This document shows positions 339-11,904 of a stretch of DNA of 11,926 bases, in pieces. This DNA comes from a virus, in the UHGV virus genome UHGV-1578451. One strand, 5' to 3'. The translations under genes and the position numbers were made by a program. The stretch's first letter is position 1. Every line of letters starts with the position of its first letter. The notes under the pieces were generated by a model. That model ran no database searches and was not told the DNA's origin. It saw only the letters and a program-made list of their open reading frames with translations.

Positions 339-1226
339 TCAATTGTCGCCACCAGCCAGTTCTTTATCGTGGGTGAAACTCCCGTTCCAGGTCACCTTCA
401 TCGGAAGCTTCCCTTTCAGATAGTTTTTGTAGATCCAGGTGGCCCCTTCCCGAAGCAGAACCGGCTGATAGGTGGTAAAGCTGACTGCTGAATTTGGAGA
501 GACTTTGCTGCTTTTCTCAGTGAGGTATTTATCACGCGCGTATGACCGGACACGCCATTGTGCGCTGCGTCCTTCCGGATTGTCGTCATATAACCAGTTC
601 ATCGAAACAAGCCAGGCGCTAATTTTTGAGGTATTAACGCCATTCAGACGTTTACAGAACTGTACTGGGGAAAGCCCATCAGTGAAGAGGCTCTCGAGAT
701 GCTCGATATATTCGGCTTGCTGGTGGGTAAGCGCCTCAGCTTGCTGCTTTGCCTCCATGGCATCCGCCCACGCACGCGCCAGGGTTATTGGATCAGACAT
801 ATTCGGCAGCATGACACCGTGGACCTCACGAAGATTGAAGTAATGATCTTCAAGCTGTTCAAAGAAGTCCCAGGCTAATTCGGTTTCAAGCATTTTTGCG
901 TGGCGGGAGGCGCCGCGCTCAGTCCAAAGATAAAGGCTGCGAGCCTTTGATGATATTTGCACACTGCTGAAAGAGTTGCGCAAATTTTCGACTTCATCAC
1001 CCTCAATTCGAAAGTAATGCTTACCCTCAACAAAACGTATTTTATTGCGGTTAAAGTTATTCGTGATGTTTTGCGCTGTTGTACCGTAGCCGCTTGCTAA
1101 AGATTCCGTAGTCACTACGCGCTGATTGCGATAAGTGATCACCGGCACCGATGAGTGATTAACGGAAATTACTGATGAAGTGCTATTTTTGGGCGTAGCA
1201 GTGCCCATAACATGATGATTGCTCAT
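339..1226 (-). CDS. ant: phage antirepressor (ORF6N-type N-terminal domain plus KilA-C/ANT-type C-terminal domain)
   Basis: ORF 339..1331 trimmed to the ATG at 1226, which is preceded by GGAGAG; the 35 codons upstream overlap rusA and look non-coding. N-terminal half carries an ORF6N-like signature (VITYRNQRVVTTESLA...NFNRNKIRFVEGKHYF...LYLWTERGA). C-terminal half (ITLARAWADAMEAKQQAEAL...KISAWLVSMNWLY) resembles the KilA-C/ANT domain. TGA stop at 339-341. Confidence 0.75.
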   Translation of the reverse strand: MSNHHVMGTATPKNSTSSVISVNHSSVPVITYRNQRVVTTESLASGYGTTAQNITNNFNRNKIRFVEGKHYFRIEGDEVENLRNSFSSVQISSKARSLYLWTERGASRHAKMLETELAWDFFEQLEDHYFNLREVHGVMLPNMSDPITLARAWADAMEAKQQAEALTHQQAEYIEHLESLFTDGLSPVQFCKRLNGVNTSKISAWLVSMNWLYDDNPEGRSAQWRVRSYARDKYLTEKSSKVSPNSAVSFTTYQPVLLREGATWIYKNYLKGKLPMKVTWNGSFTHDKELAGGDN

Positions 1227-1312
1227 ATTCTCTCCATACTCTGATTGTTGCGAAGGGCCTGCACGCCCTTTTCGCTTGCACTTTCCGACATTACTGCCAT
1301 AACGACCAATAT

Positions 1313-1711
1313 TCAACCCACAGCTGGACATATAACCACCTCTTTTTTATATGCCGTTATGGTTATCTCAACTTTTCCCTTCGGTACTATCGGTCCCCAT
1401 TCCACCAGCATTCGCTTAATCTGGCTGTCGTCTTCCCAGACACCCGCATGCGTCAGCGCGTCAAACAGGGCTTTGTTGTAATTATCGATATCCCGGCGGC
1501 GCGCATCCGGCGGGTACAGAGTGATTTCTACCGCTGCCAGTTCAGTCGATGGCTTCGGGAGACGTCGTAATTGCTCAATGATCGCCACGCAGGCAGCGCT
1601 CTGGTATTTACGACCATCAGCGCTAATGAGGTGACGACCGGCCAGCGGCCCCTTGTTAGGAGCGCGTCAGTAAGTGTTCACGCTGGGTGGAAATGGGAGT
1701 ATGAGCCTCAT
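1313..1711 (-). pseudogene. rusA: rusA-like Holliday-junction resolvase interrupted by an in-frame TGA at codon 15
   Basis: From ATG 1711-1709 (GGAGG 6 nt upstream) the frame reads MRLILPFPPSVNTY, then TGA at 1669-1667, then continues in the SAME frame as RAPNKGPLAGRHLISADGRKYQSAACVAIIEQL...PDARRRDIDNYNKALFDALTHAGVWEDDSQI...VEITITAYKK to the stop at 1313. Both sides of the TGA match the RusA family (E. coli RusA: ITLPWPPSNNRYYRHNRG...[31 protein letters not shown]), and the TGA sits where homologs have an aromatic residue (probably TGG Trp). The ORF table shows only the 91-aa GTG-1588 restart fragment (1313..1588). Confidence 0.65.
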
Positions 1712-1833: not shown

Positions 1834-3187
1834 GAGTTACCCCCTGCATGCTGTCGACAAGACCTTGCGCAATTGTGATAATTTCGCTGGTGGCCGTTCG
1901 TTCCAGCCAGAGTTGATTGATGTTGGCTTTCAGCTTGTTCTGCTGTGATTCATCCAGCATGTCAGCGCCGTCTACCTGGTCGAATACAATTCCAACCTCC
2001 AGCGGCCAGATACGGGACTCGGGAAGCGGATCCGCTACTGGTTTAGCTTTCTCACGGATGTGCATGCGGATCTGGCGAATATTGGACCAACTGGAAACAT
2101 CCAGGCTTCCCATAGCTGCAATGAAATCAGTACTGTTCATGCCATATTCACCAGATGCTTCAAGGGCAACAGTCCGAATACGTTCCGACATATCCAAGCG
2201 CGCAGCAGCGTCATCGAATTCAATCGACAACAGCCACTCATCCACACCGAACAAAATACTCTCACGAATAAGCAGCTTCGCTTTGTCGATCGTTAATGGT
2301 GATACCTGAGTGAATTCCGGTGCTTCGACAGAATCCGCCGCCCAGGTATGCCCAAACTTCGATTCACTGAATGTGTATTCTTCTTTATCGCCGAACGCAG
2401 CTCTAACGCATGCCCACGCCTCGACACCGCTGATATCAAAAATATCTTTCTGGGTAAGTGGCAACTCTGCTTCTGGCTTGTCAGCTACAGATGGTGTGAC
2501 AGTTGCAGGTTGAGACTTGCTGACAGCAAATTGCGCCAAAGTCATAAACGCCTGCCCTTTTGCCTCCAGTTCTGTACGGTTGATATAGCTGAACCGCTCA
2601 CCACGCCATGACTTATCAAATACAGCTATGGCACCGGCAAAAAACGCGCTGGTGGGCTTCTGTTTTTCGTCAGCCGGTATAAACCACACAGGCAGATCGA
2701 ACCCAATGCGCCCGCGAATGAATACAATGTGATCGGCATCTTCCGGCCACCACGTTTCACTCGGCGCGGCTTTTATCAGGAATACATAGCGACCGCCCTT
2801 CTCGCGCTGGTCTGCTGCGTACTTCATGATGTGCGTCATACCAGTGATCGCCTGTTTCTCGTGATACTGCGAACGGCTATACGGTGGGTTGCCATAACCA
2901 GCGCCACCCAGTTCTGTAAGACGTTCAGACCAGTCCTGCGTCAGCGCGTTATCTTCGGCGGTGTACCATGCCGGGCATTTCGCGTTGTCGTCGTCAGCAA
3001 ACAAGTCCAGAACTAATGGACCAAATAGCGCGTTGATCCCCCAAAAAAGCAGATCCGGTGTCCGCCACTGATCGCCAACTTCTTTCAATTCGTGAGCTGG
3101 TTTGCTACGCAGTGCCGCCAGCGCCTGGCAATATTTATTGGTATCATGAACGAAACCCCGAATTTTCTGGCAGTGAGTAATCAACAC
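1826..3187 (-). CDS. phage Dam-family N6-adenine DNA methyltransferase fused to an uncharacterised ~300-aa C-terminal domain
   Basis: Continuous minus-strand ORF with TGA stop at 1826-1828. Residues ~97-250 of the maximal ORF carry the phage Dam-family signature: DQWRTPDLLF, LDLFADDDNAKCPAWY, GNPPYS (NPPY catalytic motif), FLIKAAPSETWW, FIRGRIGF. The following ~300 residues (FDKSWRGERFSY...AQGLVDSMQGVTHA) match nothing I recognise. The maximal ORF starts at ATG 3361, but its first 58 codons overlap the 3' end of the O-like gene in another frame and look non-coding. I place the start at GTG 3187 (44-nt overlap with O); TTG 3088 is also possible. No candidate has a good Shine-Dalgarno sequence. 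Confidence 0.75.
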   Translation of the reverse strand: MLITHCQKIRGFVHDTNKYCQALAALRSKPAHELKEVGDQWRTPDLLFWGINALFGPLVLDLFADDDNAKCPAWYTAEDNALTQDWSERLTELGGAGYGNPPYSRSQYHEKQAITGMTHIMKYAADQREKGGRYVFLIKAAPSETWWPEDADHIVFIRGRIGFDLPVWFIPADEKQKPTSAFFAGAIAVFDKSWRGERFSYINRTELEAKGQAFMTLAQFAVSKSQPATVTPSVADKPEAELPLTQKDIFDISGVEAWACVRAAFGDKEEYTFSESKFGHTWAADSVEAPEFTQVSPLTIDKAKLLIRESILFGVDEWLLSIEFDDAAARLDMSERIRTVALEASGEYGMNSTDFIAAMGSLDVSSWSNIRQIRMHIREKAKPVADPLPESRIWPLEVGIVFDQVDGADMLDESQQNKLKANINQLWLERTATSEIITIAQGLVDSMQGVTHA

Positions 3188-4010
3188 TCTGGAAGTTTGC
3201 GCGGCTGGCTGAGTTAGTCTCCCATTTGCCGTTAACGCGTTCAGGCCGGCCAGCACTGGACCATTTGGTCGCGCTTTGCAGGTAACCAGGGAAGTTTTTT
3301 GGAATGAACAGAGTTGCCGGGCGGAGGTATTGCGCCTGCTCGCTATCACGCCAATCGGCATTTTTGTAATCCACTACCAGGCACAGGTCATCAACCGTGA
3401 ATTGTTCCCGAAGACGGGCGCGAATATTCTCCAGCGACGTACTGCATACCTGGTAGCGTGAGCCAGTTGTCTGGTTCAGGTAAGACAAGACCTGTCTGGC
3501 CTGATCAGTAATCACAACCTCAGGGTCTGGTTGCGCAGCAACCGGACAAGAGGGTTTTGAAGTTACTTGTGGATCTTGTTTTGATTTTACTGACGGATCC
3601 CCGCCAGATTCTGACGGGTCAAAACCACCGTTTTTGCCAGATTTCGACGGGTCAGTTTTTGAGGCGTCAAATTTTGATGCGTCAGATTTTGATGTGTCAG
3701 AATCTGACAGTTGAGAAAATGCGGCAGTCTGAAGTTTCGCCACATTCAGGCGATACACGTTCGAAGCATTACGGTTACCATTACGGCGCTGTGTACGCGT
3801 GAGCCAGCCATCTTTTTCAAGCTTTGCGATTGCCGTTCTGATAGTGCTCGGGCCCGCGCCAAGCTGGCGAGCAATAGTTTCAATTGACGGCCAGCACACA
3901 CCTTCATCGCTGCTGAAGTCAGCAAGGCGAGCCATGATCGCAACACTGGACAACTTCATGCCCGACGCTGCGCAACCATCCCATACGTAGCCGGTTAATT
4001 TAGTGCTCAT
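3144..4010 (-). CDS. replication initiation protein, O-like (N-terminal winged-helix DNA-binding domain, repeat linker, C-terminal phage replisome-organiser domain)
   Basis: ATG at 4010, TGA at 3144-3146, 288 aa. N-terminus (SSVAIMARLADFSSDEGVCWPSIETIARQLGAGPSTIRTAIAKLEKDGWLTR) is a winged-helix/HTH of the type seen in phage replication initiators. C-terminus (VITDQARQVLSYLNQTTGSRYQVCSTSLENIRARLREQFTVDDLCLVVDYKNADWRDSEQAQYLRPATLF) resembles the conserved phage replication-protein C-terminal domain. A low-complexity linker between them is encoded by the iteron-like repeats. Position after cro/cII matches lambdoid gene order. Confidence 0.8.
   Translation of the reverse strand: MSTKLTGYVWDGCAASGMKLSSVAIMARLADFSSDEGVCWPSIETIARQLGAGPSTIRTAIAKLEKDGWLTRTQRRNGNRNASNVYRLNVAKLQTAAFSQLSDSDTSKSDASKFDASKTDPSKSGKNGGFDPSESGGDPSVKSKQDPQVTSKPSCPVAAQPDPEVVITDQARQVLSYLNQTTGSRYQVCSTSLENIRARLREQFTVDDLCLVVDYKNADWRDSEQAQYLRPATLFIPKNFPGYLQSATKWSSAGRPERVNGKWETNSASRANFQSVDYSLPENSGFRS
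3585..3713. repeat. iteron-like array of ~15-bp direct repeats inside the O-like gene (putative phage replication origin)
   Basis: Plus-strand units: AGATTCTGACGGGTC (3606-3620), AGATTTCGACGGGTC (3639-3653), AGTTTTTGAGGCGTC (3654-3668), AAATTTTGATGCGTC (3669-3683), AGATTTTGATGTGTC (3684-3698), AGAATCTGACAGTTG (3699-3713), plus a degenerate copy at 3585-3599. An AT-richer stretch (3556-3590) follows in the direction of transcription. Lambda places its ori iterons in the same position, inside the O linker. Confidence 0.55.
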
Positions 4011-4019
4011 GATCGTCCG

Positions 4020-4346
4020 TTATCTCCCTGAACTTTTGCCTGAAATGCTCAAGTGGGCTGAAGCATTCGTGTGGATAGCCATCTCGCAGGTAGATAACGC
4101 GCTGTGTTTCTGGCTCCCAGCGGATAACACGGACTGGCACTCCGCGGTGATCTTTGAACCTTCGGTTAAGTTCGCGCACAGGCGTTTTGCCCTCCGGTTG
4201 TAGACCCCCACAATTGAAACCGCCCTACTGTGGTTACACGGAACCCAGCGGTTTGATAATCTGCGTTCATACCGAAACAACGGAGTACCCGAAACCGGGA
4301 TCATCCTGAGTTGCGGTAGACGGTTAAAAGCCGTTAAACTGTTCAT
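4020..4346 (-). CDS. doubtful small basic protein (108 aa) filling the gap between the CII-like and O-like genes
   Basis: ATG 4346-4344 lies 5 nt after the CII-like stop and the TAA at 4022-4020 lies 9 nt before the O-like ATG, so the ORF fits the operon exactly (MNSLTAFNRLPQLRMIPVSGTPLFRYERRLSNRWVPCNHSRAVSIVGV...). However 7 of 15 Arg codons are rare (AGG/AGA/CGG) and the composition is Ser/Arg-rich, as expected for a non-coding frame. Kept at low confidence. Confidence 0.2.
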   Translation of the reverse strand: MNSLTAFNRLPQLRMIPVSGTPLFRYERRLSNRWVPCNHSRAVSIVGVYNRRAKRLCANLTEGSKITAECQSVLSAGSQKHSALSTCEMAIHTNASAHLSISGKSSGR

Positions 4347-4351
4347 GCGGA

Positions 4352-4918
4352 TTATTTCTCCATACTCGAAGAGTTGTTCGCCAAGGCGCCCGGAGCTGCA
4401 CACTCGCGGGCGTCACTCTTTTCTGGCGCGCAGAAAACACGGAATAGCAGCGTCAAATGCTCCTGCCACTTAGCCATTACCTGATAACTGTTCTCTTCAA
4501 TCTGCTCACGTTCTGCCGGATCAATAACCCCGTCAGCGGTTGCCTTACGCAGGTACTGCGAGTGTTTACCAATCCATTCGATTGACTCCATCAGGCGCTG
4601 ATTGATATCGCCGTTATCAAGATCATCAACTTCCACCAGCGGAACGAAGACGCCTCCACTACGGCGGGCTATCGCATCGGTGACATACTTAGTACCGCTT
4701 GCATCCTGAAGCACCATCGCCCACTCAAGCGGGAAAATTTGATCACCTTCGTTACGCAGTCTGTTGTAGAGCGCATCCGTTGAGAGTTTTCCAGCGCGAT
4801 ACAGGCCAAGCCATTCAGCGGCTTCGGCATAACCGCCCGGCATTTCGGCAATCGTTCTTTTGATTGCCGCCACCAGCCAAGCCGATTGACGCTCTACCTT
4901 CCAGTGTTGTTTATCCAC
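4352..4918 (-). CDS. CII-like early regulatory protein (YdaT / phage CII CP76-like family)
   Basis: Immediately downstream of the cro-like gene on the same strand; TAA stop at 4352-4354. The region VAAIKRTIAEMPGGYAEAAEWLGLYRAGKLSTDALYNRLRNEG is reminiscent of YdaT-type proteins that follow YdaS-type Cro in Rac-like prophages. Start placed at GTG 4918, which is preceded by AAGGGG at a 6-nt spacing; the maximal ORF starts at TTG 4954, 8 nt after the cro stop and without a Shine-Dalgarno sequence. Confidence 0.65.
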   Translation of the reverse strand: MDKQHWKVERQSAWLVAAIKRTIAEMPGGYAEAAEWLGLYRAGKLSTDALYNRLRNEGDQIFPLEWAMVLQDASGTKYVTDAIARRSGGVFVPLVEVDDLDNGDINQRLMESIEWIGKHSQYLRKATADGVIDPAEREQIEENSYQVMAKWQEHLTLLFRVFCAPEKSDARECAAPGALANNSSSMEK

Positions 4919-4962
4919 GGTTAACCCCTTGATTCTGTGGTTACTTAAAATCAATTTGCGGT

Positions 4963-5157
4963 CTATTTTTTTTCATAAAGCTCAGGGTGAAAAACTAAGC
5001 CACCGCCAGTGCGATATGCCGCTTCAGCAGCCCGACCTTTCGGAATGAGGCGCCCAGGCCTATTGCGCCATTGGTAAACGGCTTCACTGGTAATGCCGAA
5101 AAATTCGGCAACTCTTTCGGCATTGCCAAAGTAATTTTCAATATCGTCAGTTGTCAT
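4963..5157 (-). CDS. cro: Cro-like HTH repressor (YdaS family), first gene of the early-right operon
   Basis: 64 aa, ATG 5157-5155 preceded by AGGAGG. Sequence NAERVAEFFGITSEAVYQWRNRPGRLIPKGRAAEAAYRTGGGLVFHPELY matches the YdaS-type Cro pattern (HTH followed by G-G..HPEL). Transcribed divergently from the CI-like repressor across an 86-bp operator region. Confidence 0.8.
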   Translation of the reverse strand: MTTDDIENYFGNAERVAEFFGITSEAVYQWRNRPGRLIPKGRAAEAAYRTGGGLVFHPELYEKK

Positions 5158-5243
5158 GATACCTCCTTAGCTAAGTTTGATTAGATATTAATTATCAATC
5201 TATCTTTGGTCAATAAAAACTAAGATTACTTAGTCCTTTATTT
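5158..5243. promoter_or_regulatory. immunity switch region between cro and cI: PR on the minus strand (TTGACC-17-TAATAT) with operator-like inverted repeats; PRM not resolved
   Basis: On the minus strand, -35 TTGACC (plus coordinates 5208-5213) and -10 TAATAT (5185-5190) are separated by 17 bp, about 28 nt upstream of the cro ATG. Operator-like elements: CTAAGTTTGATTAGAT (5171-5186), CTAAGATTACTTAG (5220-5233, 5-bp inverted arms), the palindrome CTTAGCTAAG (5166-5175), and TAGAT-N11-ATCTA (5182-5202) inside the PR spacer. Confidence 0.6.
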
Positions 5244-5885
5244 GTGAATGGTGCTTCAATGGAAACGGTTGGGCAGCGTATTAAGTCCCTCAGACTGATA
5301 ACTCGAACATCACAGAAAGAGCTTGGGAAGTTCTGCGGAGTGAGTGATGTTGCGGTTGGGTATTGGGAAAAAGATATAAATTTACCGGGTGGGGAATCAC
5401 TGGCGAAACTTGCAAAATTCTTCAATACATCAATTGATTACATCCTATATGGCACCGAATTTGAGGGTAACCTCATTACAAAAATGCGCAGGGTCCCTGT
5501 AATTTCATGGGTTCAAGCTGGTCAATTTACAGAATGTAAGGCTGCTGAAGTTTTCAATGAAGTGGATAAGTGGGTAGAAACGTCCTTAAGGGTTGGCGAT
5601 AGCTCATTCGCGCTGGAAGTTAAAGGGGACTCGATGACAAATCCTAACGGACTTCCCACTATTCCTGAAGGCGCAACCGTGATTGTAGATCCAGATGCAG
5701 AGCCATTTCATGGCAAAATTGTCGTGGCCAGAATAGATGGAACCAACGAAGCGACAGTAAAGAAACTCGTTATTGATGGCCCACAAAAATTTTTAGTCCC
5801 TCTAAATCCACGCTATCCCAACATCCCGATAAATGGTAACTGCCTGATCATCGGCGTCGTCAAAGGCGTTCAATACGAACTTTAA
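5244..5885 (+). CDS. cI: CI-type prophage repressor (N-terminal XRE-type HTH plus C-terminal S24 LexA-like autopeptidase domain)
   Basis: N-terminus QRIKSLRLITRTSQKELGKFCGVSDVAVGYWEKDINLPGGESLAKLAKFF is a classic HTH. C-terminus carries the S24 serine motif GDSM and the downstream Lys pair (VARIDGTNEATVKKL), and a candidate Ala-Gly cleavage site lies in VQAGQF. Divergent from cro. Start is either GTG 5244 or ATG 5259 (METVGQ...). Confidence 0.9.
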   Translation: MNGASMETVGQRIKSLRLITRTSQKELGKFCGVSDVAVGYWEKDINLPGGESLAKLAKFFNTSIDYILYGTEFEGNLITKMRRVPVISWVQAGQFTECKAAEVFNEVDKWVETSLRVGDSSFALEVKGDSMTNPNGLPTIPEGATVIVDPDAEPFHGKIVVARIDGTNEATVKKLVIDGPQKFLVPLNPRYPNIPINGNCLIIGVVKGVQYEL

Positions 5886-5907
5886 AACATAGCTAATCCC
5901 ACCTAAG

Positions 5908-5940
5908 CACCAAGCTAATTAAAGTTTGGTGTTTTTTCTT
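5908..5940 (+). terminator. rho-independent terminator downstream of cI
   Basis: Stem CACCAA (5908-5913) pairs with TTGGTG (5926-5931) around a 12-nt loop, followed by TTTTTT (5932-5937), 23 nt after the cI stop. Confidence 0.6.
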
Positions 5941-5967
5941 GACCATAAAACTAAGTTAAGTTAGATT
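5939..5967 (+). promoter_or_regulatory. PL-like early-left promoter (TTGACC-17-TAGATT) overlapped by an operator copy
   Basis: -35 TTGACC at 5939-5944, a 17-bp spacer, and -10 TAGATT at 5962-5967. The 16-mer CTAAGTTAAGTTAGAT (5951-5966) is a 13/16 match to the PR-side operator at 5171-5186. It lies ~95 bp upstream of the first plus-strand early gene. Confidence 0.45.
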
Positions 5968-6061
5968 TCATTCATCAACAGCGAACAGGCAGGACGCCCA
6001 CGAAGTAGCCGCCGGTGGCGTATGAATAACCGGATGATTCGCACATGGCAGGAGATTGGAT

Positions 6062-6430
6062 ATGGATGACAGTTTCGAAAATCAACGAGATGCCTGGCTT
6101 GTGGTGATTGAAGCAGCAAAAACTGCATTAAGCCAAGTTGAAAGTAGTAGCTACAGAACAGTTAAACAAATGGCATTGGGTTCTATTATCTATGCCTTTG
6201 AAATGCTGGACTTTGATTTTGAAGCCACGAGCCTTCCGTCAGAACAGCATGAAAAGATGAATAGAGAAGCCGCCGCAGCCTATATCGGCGTAGAGGCGCA
6301 AACATTAGCTAATTGGGCTAGCACAGGAAAGGTTCGTATACCTTTTTTAAAAATCGGCAGAAAGGTTACTTATCTAAAAAGTGATTTGGACGTCTATCTT
6401 GCCTCATCGAAGGCAAGTACCACAAGGTAG
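6062..6430 (+). CDS. hypothetical DNA-binding protein with C-terminal excisionase/MerR-type HTH (HTH_17-like); first gene of the early-left operon
   Basis: ATG 6062 preceded by GGAG at a 7-nt spacing (the ORF table starts at TTG 6056). C-terminal REAAAAYIGVEAQTLANWASTGKVRIPFLKIGRKVTYLKSDLDVYL matches the excisionase-family HTH pattern; the acidic N-terminal ~60 aa is unassigned. It occupies the slot held by N in lambda but has no Arg-rich N-terminal motif. Confidence 0.65.
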   Translation: MDDSFENQRDAWLVVIEAAKTALSQVESSSYRTVKQMALGSIIYAFEMLDFDFEATSLPSEQHEKMNREAAAAYIGVEAQTLANWASTGKVRIPFLKIGRKVTYLKSDLDVYLASSKASTTR

Positions 6431-6499
6431 TTTAGGTACCTACCACCGCGCCTGATGTGGTTAAAAGCAGGCCAAAGCTATAACAAGTAACTCCCTGTT

Positions 6500-6548
6500 C
6501 TGGCGGCCCGGTGTTTTCCCGTTTGTCCGGTAACCGCCAGCCTTTTTC
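6500..6548 (+). terminator. rho-independent terminator downstream of the HTH gene
   Basis: CTGGCGG (6500-6506) pairs with CCGCCAG (6534-6540), with an inner CCGG/CCGG 4-bp extension, followed by CCTTTTTC (6541-6548). Confidence 0.55.
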
Positions 6549-6968
6549 AGGGAATAACAGCCGGTCACGGTAAGTATTTCGCAGAGTGCTTACCGGGACT
6601 GGAAGAGTTAGCACTTGGAGACGGTCCTTATAAATGTCCTGGACAGTGGCGGTACCAGCACTGACAACAGCGGCAGACGTTCAACTGTGTAAACGGAGAG
6701 ATGCCAGCTCGCTCGACGGCAGTGACGGCGGGAAGTAGACCGCTGACAGCTGGGAAAGACCAGCACACAACGATGAGAGCATTGACGAGCAAGGCATAAG
6801 TGCTGGTTCGATTCCAGACAGTCCCATTCAGTTGGGAGGGTTGGGCAGGGAAAAGGTTCATTCGATTCGGACACCGGCAGTGCTCTCTTCGTTGTGGTGA
6901 AGTGCAACCCTTAGAGGTAACCAGAAGATAGCATCTGGCGCCACAACCTTATTGCTGTGTGTAGTCTT

Positions 6969-7040
6969 GGCGGTACCAGGGTCTTCAACCTTATGCAAGG
7001 GGGACGAAGATAATGTTCTACCTCGGTACCGCCCTTTTTA
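6969..7040 (+). terminator. terminator-like composite stem-loop ending in a T-run, at the end of the ORF-poor region
   Basis: GGCGGTACC (6969-6977) is the exact reverse complement of GGTACCGCC (7025-7033), which is followed by CTTTTTA (7034-7040). The 47-nt loop can form nested helices (GTCTTC/GAAGAT, CCTT/AAGG). Unusual because the closing helix is long-range. Confidence 0.4.
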
Positions 7041-7203
7041 CGCAACAGAAAAGGGCATCACCGGGCGACGGGCTCATAACCCAATCCACCCGGGCAAAAA
7101 GAAAGCGGTCTCTCAAGCCGCCAACCAATGCAGGTGCCCTTCTCTGTTGTGTATGGATAAACTAACTTTTTAGCGTCTGTGCAGATGCGCTGAGGAACCG
7201 AGA

Positions 7204-8121
7204 ATGAATAATCCGTTTTTCAAAAATATGTTGGTGTACCGCCTTAGTCGCGATTTCACCATCAACCAGGAAGAGCTGGAACAGCAGCTTGAACTATTTC
7301 GCTTCACTCCATGCGGTAGCCAGGATATGGCAAAAACCGGTTGGGTATCACCACTGGGTCAGCGGTCAGATTGCTTGCATCACACTGTCAATAATCAAGT
7401 GTTGTTGGTTATTCGCCGGGAAGAAAAAATACTGCCATCTCCTGTCATTGCTGAAGAACTACGCCAGCGTGTGGCGCGTCTGGAATCCGATCAGGGGCGT
7501 CGCCTCAAAAAAACTGAGAAAGATTCGCTGCGTGATGAAGTGTTGCACTCCCTGCTTCCTCGGGCGTTCTCCAAAAACTCGACTGTTAGTTTGTGGATCA
7601 ACATCACCGACGGTCTGATCATGGTTGATGCTGCCAGCGCCAAACGTGCCGAAGACTCACTGGCCCTGCTTCGTAAAACTCTCGGTTCTCTCCCGGTGGT
7701 ACCGCTGACTATGGAAGCGCCGATCGAACTAACTATGACCGACTGGGTTCGTTCTGGTAGTGCGCCTGCTGGCTTTGGCCTGGGTGATGAAGCCGAACTG
7801 AAAGCCATTCTTGAAAATGGCGGTATCGGACGCTTTAAAAAACAGGCTCTGGTCAGCGACGAAATTCATGTGCATCTGGAAGCTGGCAAAGTAGTTACAA
7901 AGCTGTCTATCGACTGGCAACAGCGCATTCAGTTCGTTCTTTGCGATGACGGCAGCATCAAGCGCCTTAAGTTCTCTGATGAGCTGACAGAACAAAACGA
8001 CGATATCGACCGTGAGGATGCGGCTCAGCGGTTCGACGCTGACTTTGTTCTGATGACCGGCGAGCTTATCTCTCTCATTAACGGATTAACAACCTCTCTC
8101 GGCGGCGAAGCCAAGCGATAA
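7204..8121 (+). CDS. rdgC: recombination-associated protein RdgC homolog (phage-borne)
   Basis: 305 aa, ATG 7204 preceded by GAGGAA. Closely resembles E. coli RdgC along its whole length ([144 protein letters not shown]) but is clearly diverged from the chromosomal copy as I remember it. Confidence 0.9.
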
Positions 8122-8229
8122 ACACCAGGCAACAATTACCCCCATAAGCATGGGTTGGGTTGCTGCACGCTAAATTCAGCAATTCATTAATTTAATGGCG
8201 CGGTGCAGCGCGCCAATATGGAGAAAACC

Positions 8230-8769
8230 ATGAGCTACATTCAGACATTATCCGGCAAACATTTTAATTACCTCGATATCCAACAGGACGATATCGTGAT
8301 CGAAGATATCGCTACCGCGTTGTCTCATATCTGCCGCTTTGCAGGGCATCTTCCTGAGTTTTACAGCGTCGGCCAACATAGCGTTTTAACCAGCCACCTC
8401 GTTCCGCAGGAGTTTGCATTAGAAGCCCTGCTTCATGATGCCGCCGAAGCCTACCTGCAGGATATACCCTCACCGCTTAAGCGCCTGTTACCTGATTACC
8501 AGGTGATCGAAGCTCGCGTAGACGCAGCTATTCGCCAGAAATTTGGCCTACCGACGGGGCAACACCCAACCGTGAAATATGCCGATCTGGTGATGCTTGC
8601 CAGCGAACGCCGCGATTTTGAGATTGACGAAGGTTCCATTTGGCCATGCCTCGAGGGAGTTGTCCCAACGGATTTATTCATTATCAACCCAGTTCGTCCT
8701 GGCCAGTCATACGGCATGTTCATCAATCGCTTTAACGAATTGATGGAGCAGCGCCAATGCGCCGCATGA
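8230..8769 (+). CDS. HD-domain phosphohydrolase (YfbR-like 5'-deoxynucleotidase type)
   Basis: Start placed at ATG 8230, preceded by GGAG at a 6-nt spacing (the ORF table starts at GTG 8203). HD-superfamily metal-binding motifs are present: H..R...GH (ALSHICRFAGH), the HD dyad in EALLHDAAEAYLQDIP, and a downstream D (ADLVMLASERRDFE). Confidence 0.75.
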   Translation: MSYIQTLSGKHFNYLDIQQDDIVIEDIATALSHICRFAGHLPEFYSVGQHSVLTSHLVPQEFALEALLHDAAEAYLQDIPSPLKRLLPDYQVIEARVDAAIRQKFGLPTGQHPTVKYADLVMLASERRDFEIDEGSIWPCLEGVVPTDLFIINPVRPGQSYGMFINRFNELMEQRQCAA

Positions 8770-8933
8770 AGGTAAAAGAACTCGTAGCGGAGGCGTTTGC
8801 CTCCGTTGCTGAATTGCCACCAAAGCATGCACTGCTTATGCGCGAAGTCGCCACCAGACTGGACGCTACGTTCGCAGCATTAAAAGAGTCTCTGGTGCAA
8901 CTGGAACAGGAACGTAAAGGTAAAACGCCATGA
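8766..8933 (+). CDS. small hypothetical protein (55 aa), translationally coupled
   Basis: ATG 8766 overlaps the HD-gene stop (ATGA) and the TGA at 8931-8933 overlaps the next ATG (ATGA). Encodes MKVKELVAEAFASVAELPPKHALLMREVATRLDATFAALKESLVQLEQERKGKTP. Below the ORF-table cut-off. Confidence 0.45.
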   Translation: MKVKELVAEAFASVAELPPKHALLMREVATRLDATFAALKESLVQLEQERKGKTP

Positions 8934-9184
8934 CCGTATTTGAATATCTCCAGGCTCATCCGAATACCACCAGCGGTGAAATCGCCAAAGGTATGAACAA
9001 AAAGACACCCGCGGTCGCTGGCGCATTATCGCAACTCTATGGCACCGGCCGGATCGTGAAGTCTGGTGTTCGCAAGGGCATTCCAACATACCGTGTTAAC
9101 GATATGCCGTTTGGGTGCAGTAACAGCCTAACCATGATGTTTAACCAGCTATTAAACACAGCCAGAAAGGGAGCAGCACAATGA
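8930..9184 (+). CDS. hypothetical small phage protein, winged-helix-like
   Basis: 84 aa; ATGA overlaps at both ends. TSGEIAKGMNKKTPAVAGALSQLYGTGRIV looks like an HTH / winged-helix recognition segment. No family assigned. Confidence 0.6.
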   Translation: MTVFEYLQAHPNTTSGEIAKGMNKKTPAVAGALSQLYGTGRIVKSGVRKGIPTYRVNDMPFGCSNSLTMMFNQLLNTARKGAAQ

Positions 9185-9525
9185 GTAAATCTCTGAACGC
9201 ACGTTGCATCCGTCGCTGGACCGTCGAATTTAAAGACCTCTGCGACTCGAAACACAGTCCGTACTGGCGTAAGCACCACCTTCGCAGTTACATCCGGGAA
9301 TGTGCCCTGACTACCGCTGATTGCATGGTAGAGCGTATGGCAGAGGATAATGCGATGGTAGATTTTCAGGAGACTAATCGAGGGTGGTCGCCGGAGTTCT
9401 CTGCCTGGTACCACGAACGCCGTGAACAGTATCTCAAAGAAGCTCGTGACTATCTGAACGAAGACGCCACCAATGACGAGATCGACGAGGAAATCCAGAA
9501 CGAGCTGGAGGCCTGGAATGACTAA
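9181..9525 (+). CDS. hypothetical phage protein with acidic C-terminus
   Basis: 114 aa; ATG 9181 overlaps the previous stop (ATGA) and is preceded by AGGGAG. C-terminus is strongly acidic (NEDATNDEIDEEIQNELEAWND). No family recognised. Confidence 0.6.
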   Translation: MSKSLNARCIRRWTVEFKDLCDSKHSPYWRKHHLRSYIRECALTTADCMVERMAEDNAMVDFQETNRGWSPEFSAWYHERREQYLKEARDYLNEDATNDEIDEEIQNELEAWND

Positions 9526-9991
9526 CAGCCCAATGACAGCACTCAACAAACAGGCGCTGCGCAAATTAGCAACTGATGCGCACGAGCTTGGCATCATCAA
9601 GCGTTACACGAAAGGCATCGAGGCTAATAAGAGATTCGTTGCCATCGCTACTCCTTTGACTTTTCTGGCGCTACTGGATGAGCTGGAAGCCGCAGAGAAG
9701 CGCATAGCAGAACTGGAGGCGAATAAGGGTAAGCCAGTGATGTTTATTGATGGCGATATCTCCGCATCTGACGCCGAGAAACTTGCAGAAGTTATTCGTG
9801 AAATGGGACGACGCACCAGCGCCTGCATTACAGGAGGAAATGGAAGTCGGGAAGTGGCGGTGAAACAATTCGATGACTTCCAGATTGTCCACTATGGCGC
9901 TACCGAGGATTACGCGAAAGGTTATATAGACTGCCAGAACAACTACAACAAAGCGCTTGCCGCCGCTGGCATTGGCGTGAAGGGGGAGTGA
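9517..9991 (+). CDS. hypothetical phage protein with central coiled-coil segment (possibly Ead/Ea22-like)
   Basis: Start placed at ATG 9517 (GGAGG 7 nt upstream; overlaps the previous gene by 8 nt); the ORF table starts at GTG 9473. ALLDELEAAEKRIAELEANKGK is a coiled-coil motif that I associate with Ea22-like early-left proteins; this is recalled, not searched. Confidence 0.6.
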
Positions 9992-9994
9992 GAG

Positions 9995-10270
9995 ATGAGC
10001 AAATTTACAGACGTACATGACCTGTTAACCGCGTACCAGAAACAAGCTCGTAAGATACCACCTAAGGGTGTTTATGCCTCAAGACATCGGCAGGTTGAGG
10101 TAAACGCGGCCCACGTGCGAAAGATAATGCGTAAGCGTCGGCGGTCAGTCGGCAAGTCAAATAAACTCGGATGTCGCTTTACGGCGGAAATGCGCGTAGC
10201 ACTGATTTGCGATATGAATTTTTGGGCTCTGGTATGTCGCTCTAACCGTAATCAGGAGCATGCATCATGA
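9995..10270 (+). CDS. hypothetical small basic phage protein
   Basis: 91 aa; ATG 9995 is preceded by GGGGAG. Its TGA stop (10268-10270) overlaps the next ATG (ATGA). Basic stretch KIMRKRRRSVGK. No family recognised. Confidence 0.55.
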   Translation: MSKFTDVHDLLTAYQKQARKIPPKGVYASRHRQVEVNAAHVRKIMRKRRRSVGKSNKLGCRFTAEMRVALICDMNFWALVCRSNRNQEHAS

Positions 10271-11019
10271 CAACTAACCACCCGGCGCACGGTCCTGTAT
10301 CACTCGAGCGCCTGCACCAGATAAGCGAAATACTCAGCAAAGCAGCAGCACAAAGCGACGGCGGTAATCTCGGCTACGCAATGGCTGATGCAGTGAAGGT
10401 TATTGATGGGGCTATTGCAGCGTTTAGCTCTGAGCCACAACGAAACCCTGTGTTGACCTATGCGGATAGTTATCGCGATATGGCTGAGCGCGGAGTTGAA
10501 TCTATCCCGGTCTGGAGCGTAATAATTGACCTTGAAAGAAACATCGCTCCACTCTACACCGCCCCGCCAGCGCCGGTAGTGCCAACGTTCGATGAATGGC
10601 TGGCAATTCGCGGTGATAAGCCACTTGGTTGGGTTAAAGACGCGATGCGTGAATCGTATGATGCTTGCCGCGCCGCCATGCTTCAGCATGATCCAGTTTG
10701 CACATGCCCTAGTGGTGACGGTTCGCTACGCTGGCCGTGTCCGGTGCATCCTGGCAACTCTCCGGTTACTCCGGATGGTTGGGCTTTGGTGCCTAAGAGG
10801 CTAACCGCCGAGAACGGCGCAAAGGGTGTGCTGTCCGGTGAGTTTTCAGAAACGAAATTTATAAACTGCCCAGAGTGTTTTGGTGATGATGAATGCGAAA
10901 CATGCGACGGCAGCGGTCGAATTGAGATAACAGTGCCAGTCAGTTGGACGAACATCAAGGCCATTTGGGCTAAAGGTGTCGAGCATTTCGAAGCAGCACC
11001 TCAGCAGGAGAATGTATAA
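10267..11019 (+). CDS. hypothetical phage protein with C-terminal DnaJ-type CxxCxGxG zinc-finger motifs
   Basis: 250 aa; ATG 10267 is preceded by AGGAG. C-terminal cysteine cluster CTCPSGDG...WPCPVHPG...CPECFGDDECETCDGSGR contains paired CxxC(xGxG) units typical of zinc ribbons / DnaJ-like zinc fingers. Confidence 0.65.
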   Translation: MTTNHPAHGPVSLERLHQISEILSKAAAQSDGGNLGYAMADAVKVIDGAIAAFSSEPQRNPVLTYADSYRDMAERGVESIPVWSVIIDLERNIAPLYTAPPAPVVPTFDEWLAIRGDKPLGWVKDAMRESYDACRAAMLQHDPVCTCPSGDGSLRWPCPVHPGNSPVTPDGWALVPKRLTAENGAKGVLSGEFSETKFINCPECFGDDECETCDGSGRIEITVPVSWTNIKAIWAKGVEHFEAAPQQENV

Positions 11020-11593
11020 CGTGAACAATTTAATGATCGACCTTGAGTCTATGGGCAAAAAACCGAATGCCCCTATCGTCTCCATTGGTGCCGTGTTCTT
11101 CGATCCGCAAAGCGGTGAACTGGGTCAGGAGTTTTACACCGCCGTTAACCTTGAAAGCGCTATGGAGCAGGGAGCGGTGCCGGATGGTGACACTATTCTG
11201 TGGTGGTTAAGACAAAGCTCAGAAGCACGATCAGCAATCTGTGTTGATGATGCGATGCCGATATCGTCTGCCCTATCTGAACTGAGCCATTTCATTAATC
11301 GGCATTCTGATAACCCAAAATATTTAAAAGTTTGGGGCAATGGAGCTACTTTCGACAACGTTATATTGCGCGGCGCATATGAGCGCGCCGGCCAAGTTTG
11401 CCCGTGGCAATTTTGGAACGATCACGACGTCAGAACTATCGTCACATTAGGCAGAGTGGTGGGTTTCGATCCAAAGCGAGATATGCCATTCGATGGGGTT
11501 GCACATAACGCACTGGCCGATGCGCGACATCAAGCAAAATACGTGTCCGCGATCTGGCAGAAGTTGATTCCGGCCACCAGCAGCGACCTGTAA
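11012..11593 (+). CDS. DEDDh-family 3'-5' exonuclease
   Basis: Exo I motif MIDLESMG, Exo II motif VWGNGATFDNVIL, Exo III motif GVAHNALADARHQAKY (H-x4-D). Start is ambiguous: ATG 11012 (AGGAGA immediately upstream), GTG 11021 or ATG 11033; the ORF table gives GTG 10976. Confidence 0.8.
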   Translation: MYNVNNLMIDLESMGKKPNAPIVSIGAVFFDPQSGELGQEFYTAVNLESAMEQGAVPDGDTILWWLRQSSEARSAICVDDAMPISSALSELSHFINRHSDNPKYLKVWGNGATFDNVILRGAYERAGQVCPWQFWNDHDVRTIVTLGRVVGFDPKRDMPFDGVAHNALADARHQAKYVSAIWQKLIPATSSDL

Positions 11594-11631
11594 TTTCCCC
11601 TGGGTGCAGCCAGGTTGTATGGAGAATGTCT

Positions 11632-11904
11632 ATGAATACTTTGTTTTTACTTATGGCTGAGTTCAACACGCCTAACATCGAGCTGTCAGCTGTATGCCAA
11701 AAGTATTTCGGTATGAGCCCTAACACAGCAGAAGCGAAAGCAAATGCCTGTCAGTTACCTATCCCAACTTATCGTGTAGGAACATCGCAGAAAGCAAAGC
11801 GCTGCATCAACATTCAGGATCTTGCTGAGTATATAGACCAGCGGCGTGAAGAAGGCAGAATTGAATGGGAAAGAGTCAGAACGAACAAACAGAAAAATAG
11901 TTGA
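11632..11904 (+). CDS. PrtN-family small DNA-binding protein in the excisionase position
   Basis: Start placed at ATG 11632 (GGAGA 6 nt upstream), giving MNTLFLLMAEFNTPNIELSAVCQKYFGMSPNTAEAKANACQLPIPTYRVGTSQKAKRCINIQDLAEYIDQRR. The MNT.FLLMA N-terminus and overall pattern match the pyocin-activator PrtN family as I recall it. It is the last gene before the expected integrase just outside the window. Confidence 0.6.
   Translation: MNTLFLLMAEFNTPNIELSAVCQKYFGMSPNTAEAKANACQLPIPTYRVGTSQKAKRCINIQDLAEYIDQRREEGRIEWERVRTNKQKNS

Follow-up and report, generated by a model that had tools for sequence, protein, structure and literature searches.

The 11,926-nt stretch of the virus genome UHGV-1578451 analyzed here (the window) covers the early part of a lambdoid prophage and carries an rdgC gene of a prophage clade together with an ortholog of yfdR, which encodes an HD-domain protein. 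The two genes lie on the same strand, 108 nt apart. We consider it probable that rdgC and yfdR are two accessory early genes that modulate the host, belonging to a lambdoid prophage that is Chi-rich and lacks a recombination (Rec) module. Annotations and published discussion already exist for both families, for their location in phages, and even for the exact proteins; accounts of the yfdPQR cluster and of phage RdgC in lambdoid early-left regions date from 2025 (PMC12315714). The features of the window are collected in Table 1.

Judged by its profile matches, the open reading frame (ORF) at 7204-8121 is a full-length, bona fide RdgC, and this identity is secure. It matches the Pfam RdgC family (PF04381) with E=4.1e-117 and 391 bits (cutoff 25), the match running from end to end with residues 5-302 on profile positions 2-298. 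In addition, the ORF scores 517 bits with the NCBIfam RdgC equivalog NF001460 (cutoff 501), 5e-126 with phrog_724, and E=2.4e-136 with the sequence of the E. coli RdgC crystal structure 2OWL. These matches bear out a first-pass annotation of the window, which had called the gene a diverged RdgC homolog, the divergence amounting to 68-70% identity with chromosomal enterobacterial RdgC. The protein belongs to the same length class as chromosomal RdgC, aligns with it over the full length, and shares with it the experimentally tested residues. Particularly, the ring-dimer interface is kept at the gate (R118 and F120) and at the horseshoe (Q212, E218, H222, and K227; E. coli numbering), and the basic fingertip (R97, K98, K100, and K101) is also kept, K98R being its sole change in the alignment with E. 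coli RdgC. The roles of these residues in ring closure, function, and DNA loading come from mutagenesis (Briggs 2010, PMC2965237). RdgC rings bind double-stranded DNA (dsDNA) and lower RecA strand exchange, ATPase activity, and LexA cleavage, and RdgC counters RecFOR toxicity in priA mutants (PMC11077077). We infer from sequence that the window RdgC would likewise bind dsDNA non-specifically as a dimer and inhibit RecA strand exchange and LexA cleavage.

The phylogenetic comparison proposed by the first-pass annotation was run as a neighbor-joining (NJ) tree and an identity matrix of 26 proteins. In this tree, prophage RdgC proteins of 305-309 aa form their own clade, apart from chromosomal RdgC. 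The clade comprises the window protein, Citrobacter and E. coli proteins (97-81% identical to it), and proteins from Phytobacter, Leclercia, Klebsiella, Cronobacter, Salmonella, and phage KpF5; among these other members, identity to chromosomal RdgC goes down to 58%. The chromosomal 303-aa RdgC proteins of Enterobacterales make up a group of their own, with 81-91% identity to the K-12 protein. The Sashavirus-type RdgC proteins branch near the node between the prophage and chromosomal proteins, and the P1-like ones are more distant; the window lineage is 50-66% identical to these two types. RdgC homologs occur in 346 GenBank phage records, and the family includes P1 HrdC, the proteins of Sashavirus, F116, and VHML, the ICP1 'recombination-associated protein', and the lambdoid early-left RdgC of PMC12315714. 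The window gene differs from chromosomal rdgC, which in K-12 adjoins mak, in that it belongs to a separate clade and is located in a prophage early-left operon, and its expression is presumably repressor-controlled.

The HD-domain protein aligns over its full length with E. coli K-12 YfdR from the cryptic prophage CPS-53 (64% over 178 aa, E=2e-90). It also matches phrog_318, labeled 'deoxyribonucleoside 5' monophosphate phosphatase' (E=2e-97), and the HD-domain protein Atu1052 (PDB 2GZ4, E=5e-13). The true start of the gene is likely ATG 8230, which gives the 179-aa protein called in all relatives. Across 97 unique relatives, the HD metal ligands H50, H69, and D70 do not vary; the window protein also has D119, and the H...HD...D ligands align with the corresponding residues of 2GZ4. 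The fold and the metal ligands are shared with YfbR (PF12917) and the phage T5-type phosphatases acting on deoxyribonucleoside monophosphates (dNMPs). An earlier assignment of the protein to the 5'-deoxynucleotidase type therefore holds by way of YfdR and phrog_318 and fails by way of the YfbR models: the match to the Pfam YfbR-like family stays below threshold (19.7 bits vs 25.9) and covers residues 63-109 only, and the NCBIfam YfbR model NF003009 is also below its cutoff (16.4 bits vs 122). K-12 YfdR binds DnaA domain I (Phe46), moderately blocks the binding of DiaA and DnaB, and is a weak 5'-deoxynucleotidase with much lower nucleotide affinity than YfbR (PMC4776307). Inhibition of oriC initiation in K-12 in vivo needs yfdQ and yfdR plus yfdS or yfdT, and only YfdR binds DnaA (PMC4776307). 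By homology, DnaA binding and dNMP phosphatase activity may carry over from the K-12 ortholog to the window YfdR.

Both genes lie inside the prophage, between cI and xis, in agreement with the earlier description of rdgC as phage-borne. The best E. coli matches to the window are the prophages of strain 1943 and Nissle 1917, in which the matching region is located between the terminase/lysis/Q genes and xis-int with a chromosomal attachment site. The identical RdgC protein is found in prophages at several different attachment sites.

The consensus scans suggest pL, rather than the cI transcript, as the simplest source of rdgC expression, because a terminator-like hairpin follows cI, the promoter behind it is overlapped by an operator, and no further plus-strand promoter-like site was found up to position 9000 in the promoter scan. 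The operator copy at 5951-5964 (pattern match, one mismatch) overlaps the pL-like promoter, and the oR sequence at 5216-5233 is directly repeated at 5947-5964. The gene begins 1.3 kb past cI. It is not the first pL gene, since the HTH gene, a terminator-like hairpin, and a structured RNA element precede it, and the recombination module at whose head the first-pass annotation had placed it is not present, the phage being of the Rec-less, Chi-rich type described below.

No match to Exo, Bet, Gam, RecE, RecT, Erf, Abc2, or Sak was found in the ORFs of 6056-11904 (Pfam, NCBIfam, PHROGs), which agrees with the earlier remark that exo/bet/gam and recET are missing from the early-left operon. The sole nuclease among these ORFs is the Rv2179c-like DEDDh 3'-5' exonuclease. 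The window contains nine Chi octamers (GCTGGTGG) in 11.9 kb, with 0.38 expected, and none of 200 shuffles reaches nine. They are located at 349, 719, 1402, 1886, 2648, 4633, 4870, 8967, and 11574, and six of the nine lie on the minus strand, the equivalent of the top strand of lambda. In addition, no N family match was found among the window ORFs (Pfam, PHROGs), and the replication module consists of one O-like gene followed by Dam, with no helicase loader. The 'no Rec module, high Chi' class was defined around phage LLS, and its members often have no N and O-only replication (PMC12315714). Because it has no Rec genes, nine Chi sites, no N homolog, and an O-only replication module, the phage fits this LLS-type class, an assignment that concerns the window and not the whole phage. 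In lambdoid early-left operons, homologs of yfdR (there called yfbR), yfdQ, and yfdP are fairly common, and RdgC homologs have been noted in a few early-left regions (PMC12315714). The earlier statement that neither gene is standard in lambdoid phages was therefore too strong.

The phage lacks its own recombinase, RecBCD inhibitor, and helicase loader, and the most economical reading is that both genes are non-essential, early, and host-modulating in a phage reliant on host replication and recombination proteins. In this proposal, the lambdoid prophage is of the LLS/ST64B type (N-less, Rec-module-less, and Chi-rich), and rdgC and yfdR would be accessory early genes in it, both transcribed from the pL-like promoter upon induction or infection. 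The phage-clade RdgC would, by homology, load non-specifically on dsDNA as a ring-shaped dimer, and on DNA it would restrain the functions of the RecA filament, namely strand exchange, coprotease activity, and RecFOR-dependent loading. YfdR, a predicted metal-dependent HD-domain phosphohydrolase with weak dNMP phosphatase activity, would act like the K-12 version at Phe46 of DnaA domain I, hindering DiaA and DnaB and lowering oriC initiation when the neighboring genes are expressed. Both proteins may thereby adjust host DNA transactions early in lytic growth, YfdR at replication initiation and RdgC at RecA activity on replicating DNA. The two genes would represent neighboring cassettes, with rdgC filling the slot that yfdP-yfdQ occupies in most relatives. 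The identities, the conserved functional residues, the position in the operon, and the distribution among relatives come from the present sequence analysis; the biochemical activities are taken from the literature on orthologs, and we infer the timing of expression, the role in host takeover, and any cooperation between RdgC and YfdR.

The biology of the Rec-less, Chi-rich lambdoid class is almost unstudied, and the window phage is an example of it. A phage-encoded RecA modulator and a DnaA-binding protein readily suggest themselves as means by which such phages manage host replication and recombination. Moreover, the slot sharing between rdgC and yfdP-yfdQ bears on whether RdgC substitutes for YfdQ in the inhibition of DnaA and oriC. 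Close relatives of the rdgC-yfdR pair are present in E. coli Nissle 1917 (96.6% nucleotide identity), a tractable probiotic strain in which genetics is feasible.

The adjacency of rdgC and yfdR is recurrent, has arisen with two very different RdgC lineages, and is facultative in both directions. A block of rdgC-yfdR-orf58-orf84 with fixed spacing is found in all eight contexts of the identical RdgC protein, which differ in cI/cro alleles, integrases, and attachment sites, and also in most IMG/VR relatives. Within IMG/VR, yfdR lies directly downstream of RdgC type A (RdgC-A) genes in 23/23 cases at ≥95% identity and in 7/8 cases at 72-74% identity; in the former group, rdgC adjoins three yfdR alleles of ~98%, ~75%, and ~70% identity. 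A Salmonella prophage with an RdgC of 70% identity also has yfdR. The second lineage, RdgC-B, is 22% identical to the window protein (Pfam RdgC 7e-33) and retains R118, F120, and E218, with Q212, H222, and K227 changed; at ≥86% identity it is followed by yfdR in 30/30 cases. RdgC-B is exemplified by L001 at 13033-13950, in the prophage of E. coli strain 1943, and also occurs in L287-L366. Only the window lineage and RdgC-B were found beside yfdR. The 1,566-bp pair has a match in 45 of 5,426 complete genomes of E. coli, and 33 carry both genes at ≥96% identity. The linkage samples are closely related mosaics, and the counts given here do not represent independent events. A YfdR scan of genome contigs for linkage returned mostly N-terminal matches in metagenome-assembled genomes of Lachnospiraceae and was uninformative.

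Viewed from yfdR, the upstream neighbor in 79 contigs (≥84% identity) is YfdQ in 57, RdgC-A in 12, RdgC-B in 6, and another gene in 4, and one and the same allele of yfdR (≥96% identity) occurs with each of the three named partners. The window yfdR has the same early-left position as in the K-12 CPS-53 cluster yfdP-yfdQ-yfdR(-S-T) and its counterparts, ST64B gp35-37 and LLS gp37-39. Here, rdgC takes the position of yfdP-yfdQ upstream of yfdR, orf58 and orf84 stand in place of yfdS and yfdT, and the window yfdR allele is also present in relatives with yfdP-yfdQ. One relative, L095, has yfdS. The first-pass description of the two genes as a pair is thus justified as far as recurrent adjacency goes and does not hold as a fixed association, with yfdR more often following yfdQ and many phage rdgC genes having no yfdR.

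Several observations weigh against reading the two genes as a host-modulating pair of this kind. For RdgC at ≤66% identity (Sashavirus-like, P1-like, and others), yfdR lies downstream in 0/15 IMG/VR cases, and for RdgC-B at 69-72% identity it is next in 0/49 non-truncated contigs (one more is truncated). Phage KpF5 (RdgC 73%) and a Phytobacter prophage (86%) have no yfdR beside rdgC, yfdR is mostly located after yfdQ, and YfdQ and RdgC have no sequence or fold similarity. Some relatives carry an insert of ~280 nt with a small ORF between rdgC and yfdR, which moves the yfdR start from ~1026 to ~1305 nt past the rdgC start; in the contig L077 the insert is at 6916-7305, and there a G9 run seems to have shifted the small ORF out of frame. 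The promoter and the terminators were called solely by their match to a consensus. Deletion of yfdQRST in K-12 has no replication phenotype (PMC4776307). The P1 RdgC homolog hrdC is non-essential by CRISPR interference (CRISPRi), and save for this result a literature search found no experimentally defined function for any phage RdgC. Finally, a RecA antagonist sits uneasily in a phage presumed to recombine by way of RecBCD, Chi, and RecA.

A tighter arrangement is conceivable, in which RdgC of either lineage and YfdP-YfdQ are interchangeable partners of YfdR in a coupled two-component module, the DNA-bound partner positioning or activating YfdR against host initiation. YfdQ or an RdgC-family gene directly precedes yfdR in 75/79 contigs with one allele combined with all three partners, two RdgC lineages of 22% identity occupy the same slot, and K-12 YfdR requires YfdQ for its in vivo effect. 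However, YfdQ and RdgC are unrelated, many rdgC genes occur without yfdR, the adjacency could reflect shared recombination junctions in a mosaic region, and the sampled contigs are so closely related that their counts are not independent. The statement that RdgC replaces YfdQ as the partner of YfdR is one about position only, and we regard the coupled module as unlikely. Its wider form, in which the RdgC lineages and YfdP-YfdQ belong to an unrecognized module that couples a DNA-associated factor to DnaA domain I and shuts off or redirects host replication, often preceded by a ~135-nt tRNA-like RNA, is distinctly unlikely; if true, it would be a module for lambdoid phages without a helicase loader and recombinase.

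Lambda RexA, encoded beside cI, binds DNA non-specifically and has a fold distantly related to that of RdgC (PMC11077077). In a RexA-like role, RdgC could be made in the lysogen from the cI transcript for superinfection exclusion or to bias lysis and lysogeny, as suggested for lambdoid RdgC in PMC12315714. For the window gene this expression was rejected, since the hairpin at 5905-5934 and the operator-overlapped promoter at 5939-5967 separate it from cI; unlike the gene discussed in that report, it is located behind pL, 1.3 kb downstream with another gene, a second hairpin, and the RNA element in between. RexA shares its transcript with cI and has RexB as its partner, and the window rdgC fits on neither count: there is no RexB-like gene, and rdgC is followed by yfdR. 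With 68-70% identity to the host protein, the gene product is a bona fide RdgC, and it has no sequence similarity to RexA. We consider a RexA-like role improbable. An anti-defense function, with the HD enzyme degrading signaling nucleotides or correcting pools and RdgC shielding DNA from nuclease-based defenses or RecBCD, had been raised by the first-pass annotation. Early accessory genes in such variable regions often include anti-defense genes, HD phosphohydrolases act on nucleotides, and RdgC is reported to coat dsDNA. Neither RdgC nor YfdR has a PADLOC match, though, no link between phage RdgC and defense was found in the literature, and a Chi-rich genome argues for the use of RecBCD rather than its blocking. 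The only experimental data on the YfdR family point instead to DnaA binding and a weak phosphatase activity, dNMPs being the only reported substrates and bound with low affinity, and we hold an anti-defense role to be unsupported and very improbable. The first-pass annotation had also named the possibility that rdgC is simply the host chromosomal gene beside a prophage end, for which nothing more than the identity to host RdgC speaks. This is excluded by the prophage context, with the gene between cI and xis/int and at several attachment sites in relatives, and by the location of chromosomal rdgC elsewhere, beside mak and in a different clade; its probability is close to nil. Two accessory early genes of a Rec-less, Chi-rich prophage thus remain our preferred explanation.

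The leader upstream of rdgC contains three noncoding plus-strand segments (5976-6042, 6441-6560, and 7041-7210) that are 87-100% identical across relatives with different immunity regions, the first of them just behind the pL-like promoter. These segments are also present in a prophage with yfdP-yfdQ in place of rdgC, and segment 6441-6560, which holds the hairpin at 6500-6548, is kept in all relatives, the yfdP-yfdQ carriers included. A put-like antiterminator RNA of the HK022 type was considered for the pL leader and rejected, with no HK022 similarity and a fold of 5974-6050 at z = +1.1 vs shuffled sequence.

Compared with most relatives, the leaders of the window and of L010 contain an insertion of ~480 nt at 6561-7040, which folds better than shuffled sequence (z = -3.7). 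Its core is a candidate structured RNA with a long closing helix formed by an inverted repeat (6766-6787 / 6875-6896) and two hairpins with T-loop-like UUCGAUU loops. The element is carried by 71 GenBank phages and 79 IMG/VR contigs at 80-100% identity, a set gathered by an exact 21-mer and thus limited in its sampled diversity. RNAalifold gives 41 pairs, seven of them with compensatory double changes, and the changes are distributed over three helices; the central hairpin varies as UCCCA/UGGGA, ACCUC/GAGGU, and UCCUG/CAGGA. Many G-U pairs, which become mismatches on the opposite strand, favor the plus strand. Neither the 6431-7203 gap nor the element has an Rfam, tRNA, or tmRNA match. Of 67 non-truncated contigs, 61 have yfdP, rdgC, or yfdR within 1.5 kb downstream of the element and in its orientation; its occurrence is sporadic, with only a minority of the yfdP/rdgC/yfdR operons carrying one. 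SPN9TCW, an epsilon15-like phage, has a tRNA-Arg(UCU) gene immediately next to it.

Table 1 Features of the window in order of position
Feature	Position	Strand	Remarks
ORF6N antirepressor-like gene	339-1331	-	
rusA (Holliday-junction resolvase)	1313-1711	-	premature stop
Dam methylase gene	1826 to ~3148	-	directly follows the O-like gene
O-like replication gene	3144-4010	-	single; Phg_2220_C
DUF4222 gene	4000-4179	-	
CII-like CP76 gene	4352-4954	-	
cro	4963-5157	-	divergent from cI
Operator-like palindromes CTAAGnnnnCTTAG	at 5171 and 5220		between cro and cI
cI-type repressor gene, LexA-like	5244-5885	+	Pfam HTH_3 2.9e-09, Peptidase_S24 3.4e-27
Terminator-like hairpin, 12-bp stem then TTTTCTTGACC	5905-5934	+	directly past the cI stop (terminator scan)
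pL-like sigma-70 promoter, TTGACC-17-TAGATT	5939-5967	+	promoter scan
HTH_17/excisionase-like DNA-binding protein gene, 124 aa	6056-6430	+	first gene behind the pL-like promoter; Pfam HTH_17 3.4e-07
Stretch without credible ORFs, 773 nt	6431-7203		between the HTH_17 gene and rdgC
Stable terminator-like hairpin, then CCUUUUUC	6500-6548	+	fold -26.9 kcal/mol, z = -4.18
Candidate tRNA-like structured RNA, ~135 nt, unannotated	6764-6902	+	core of insertion 6561-7040
rdgC, prophage clade, 305 aa	7204-8121	+	ATG start; GAGGAA Shine-Dalgarno 6-7 nt upstream
yfdR ortholog, HD-domain phosphohydrolase, 179 aa	8230-8769	+	ATG 8230; ORF open from GTG 8203
Small ORFs	8757-9525	+	overlapping start/stop codons
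orf58	8757-8933	+	start overlaps yfdR end (ORF list); phrogs match
orf84	8930-9184	+	phrog_1687, MarR-like; start overlaps orf58 end
Ead/Ea22-like gene, then two ORFs of unknown function		+	between the small ORFs and the exonuclease gene
Rv2179c-like DEDDh 3'-5' exonuclease gene	10976-11593	+	
xis (excisionase)	11626-11904	+	

Among the remaining genes, rusA is the sole recombination-related gene in the window and is probably inactive in this copy. Its premature stop is at codon 15 (~1667-1669), where L010, a relative that is otherwise identical, has Trp. The HTH_17 gene at 6056-6430 is variable, only some relatives (L011, L013, and L077) having one. In the cI-rdgC interval of L009, L010, and L011, a minus-strand gene for a protein of ~293 aa with a C-terminal BRCT domain replaces the HTH_17 gene; in L010 it is located at 8011-8892 (-).

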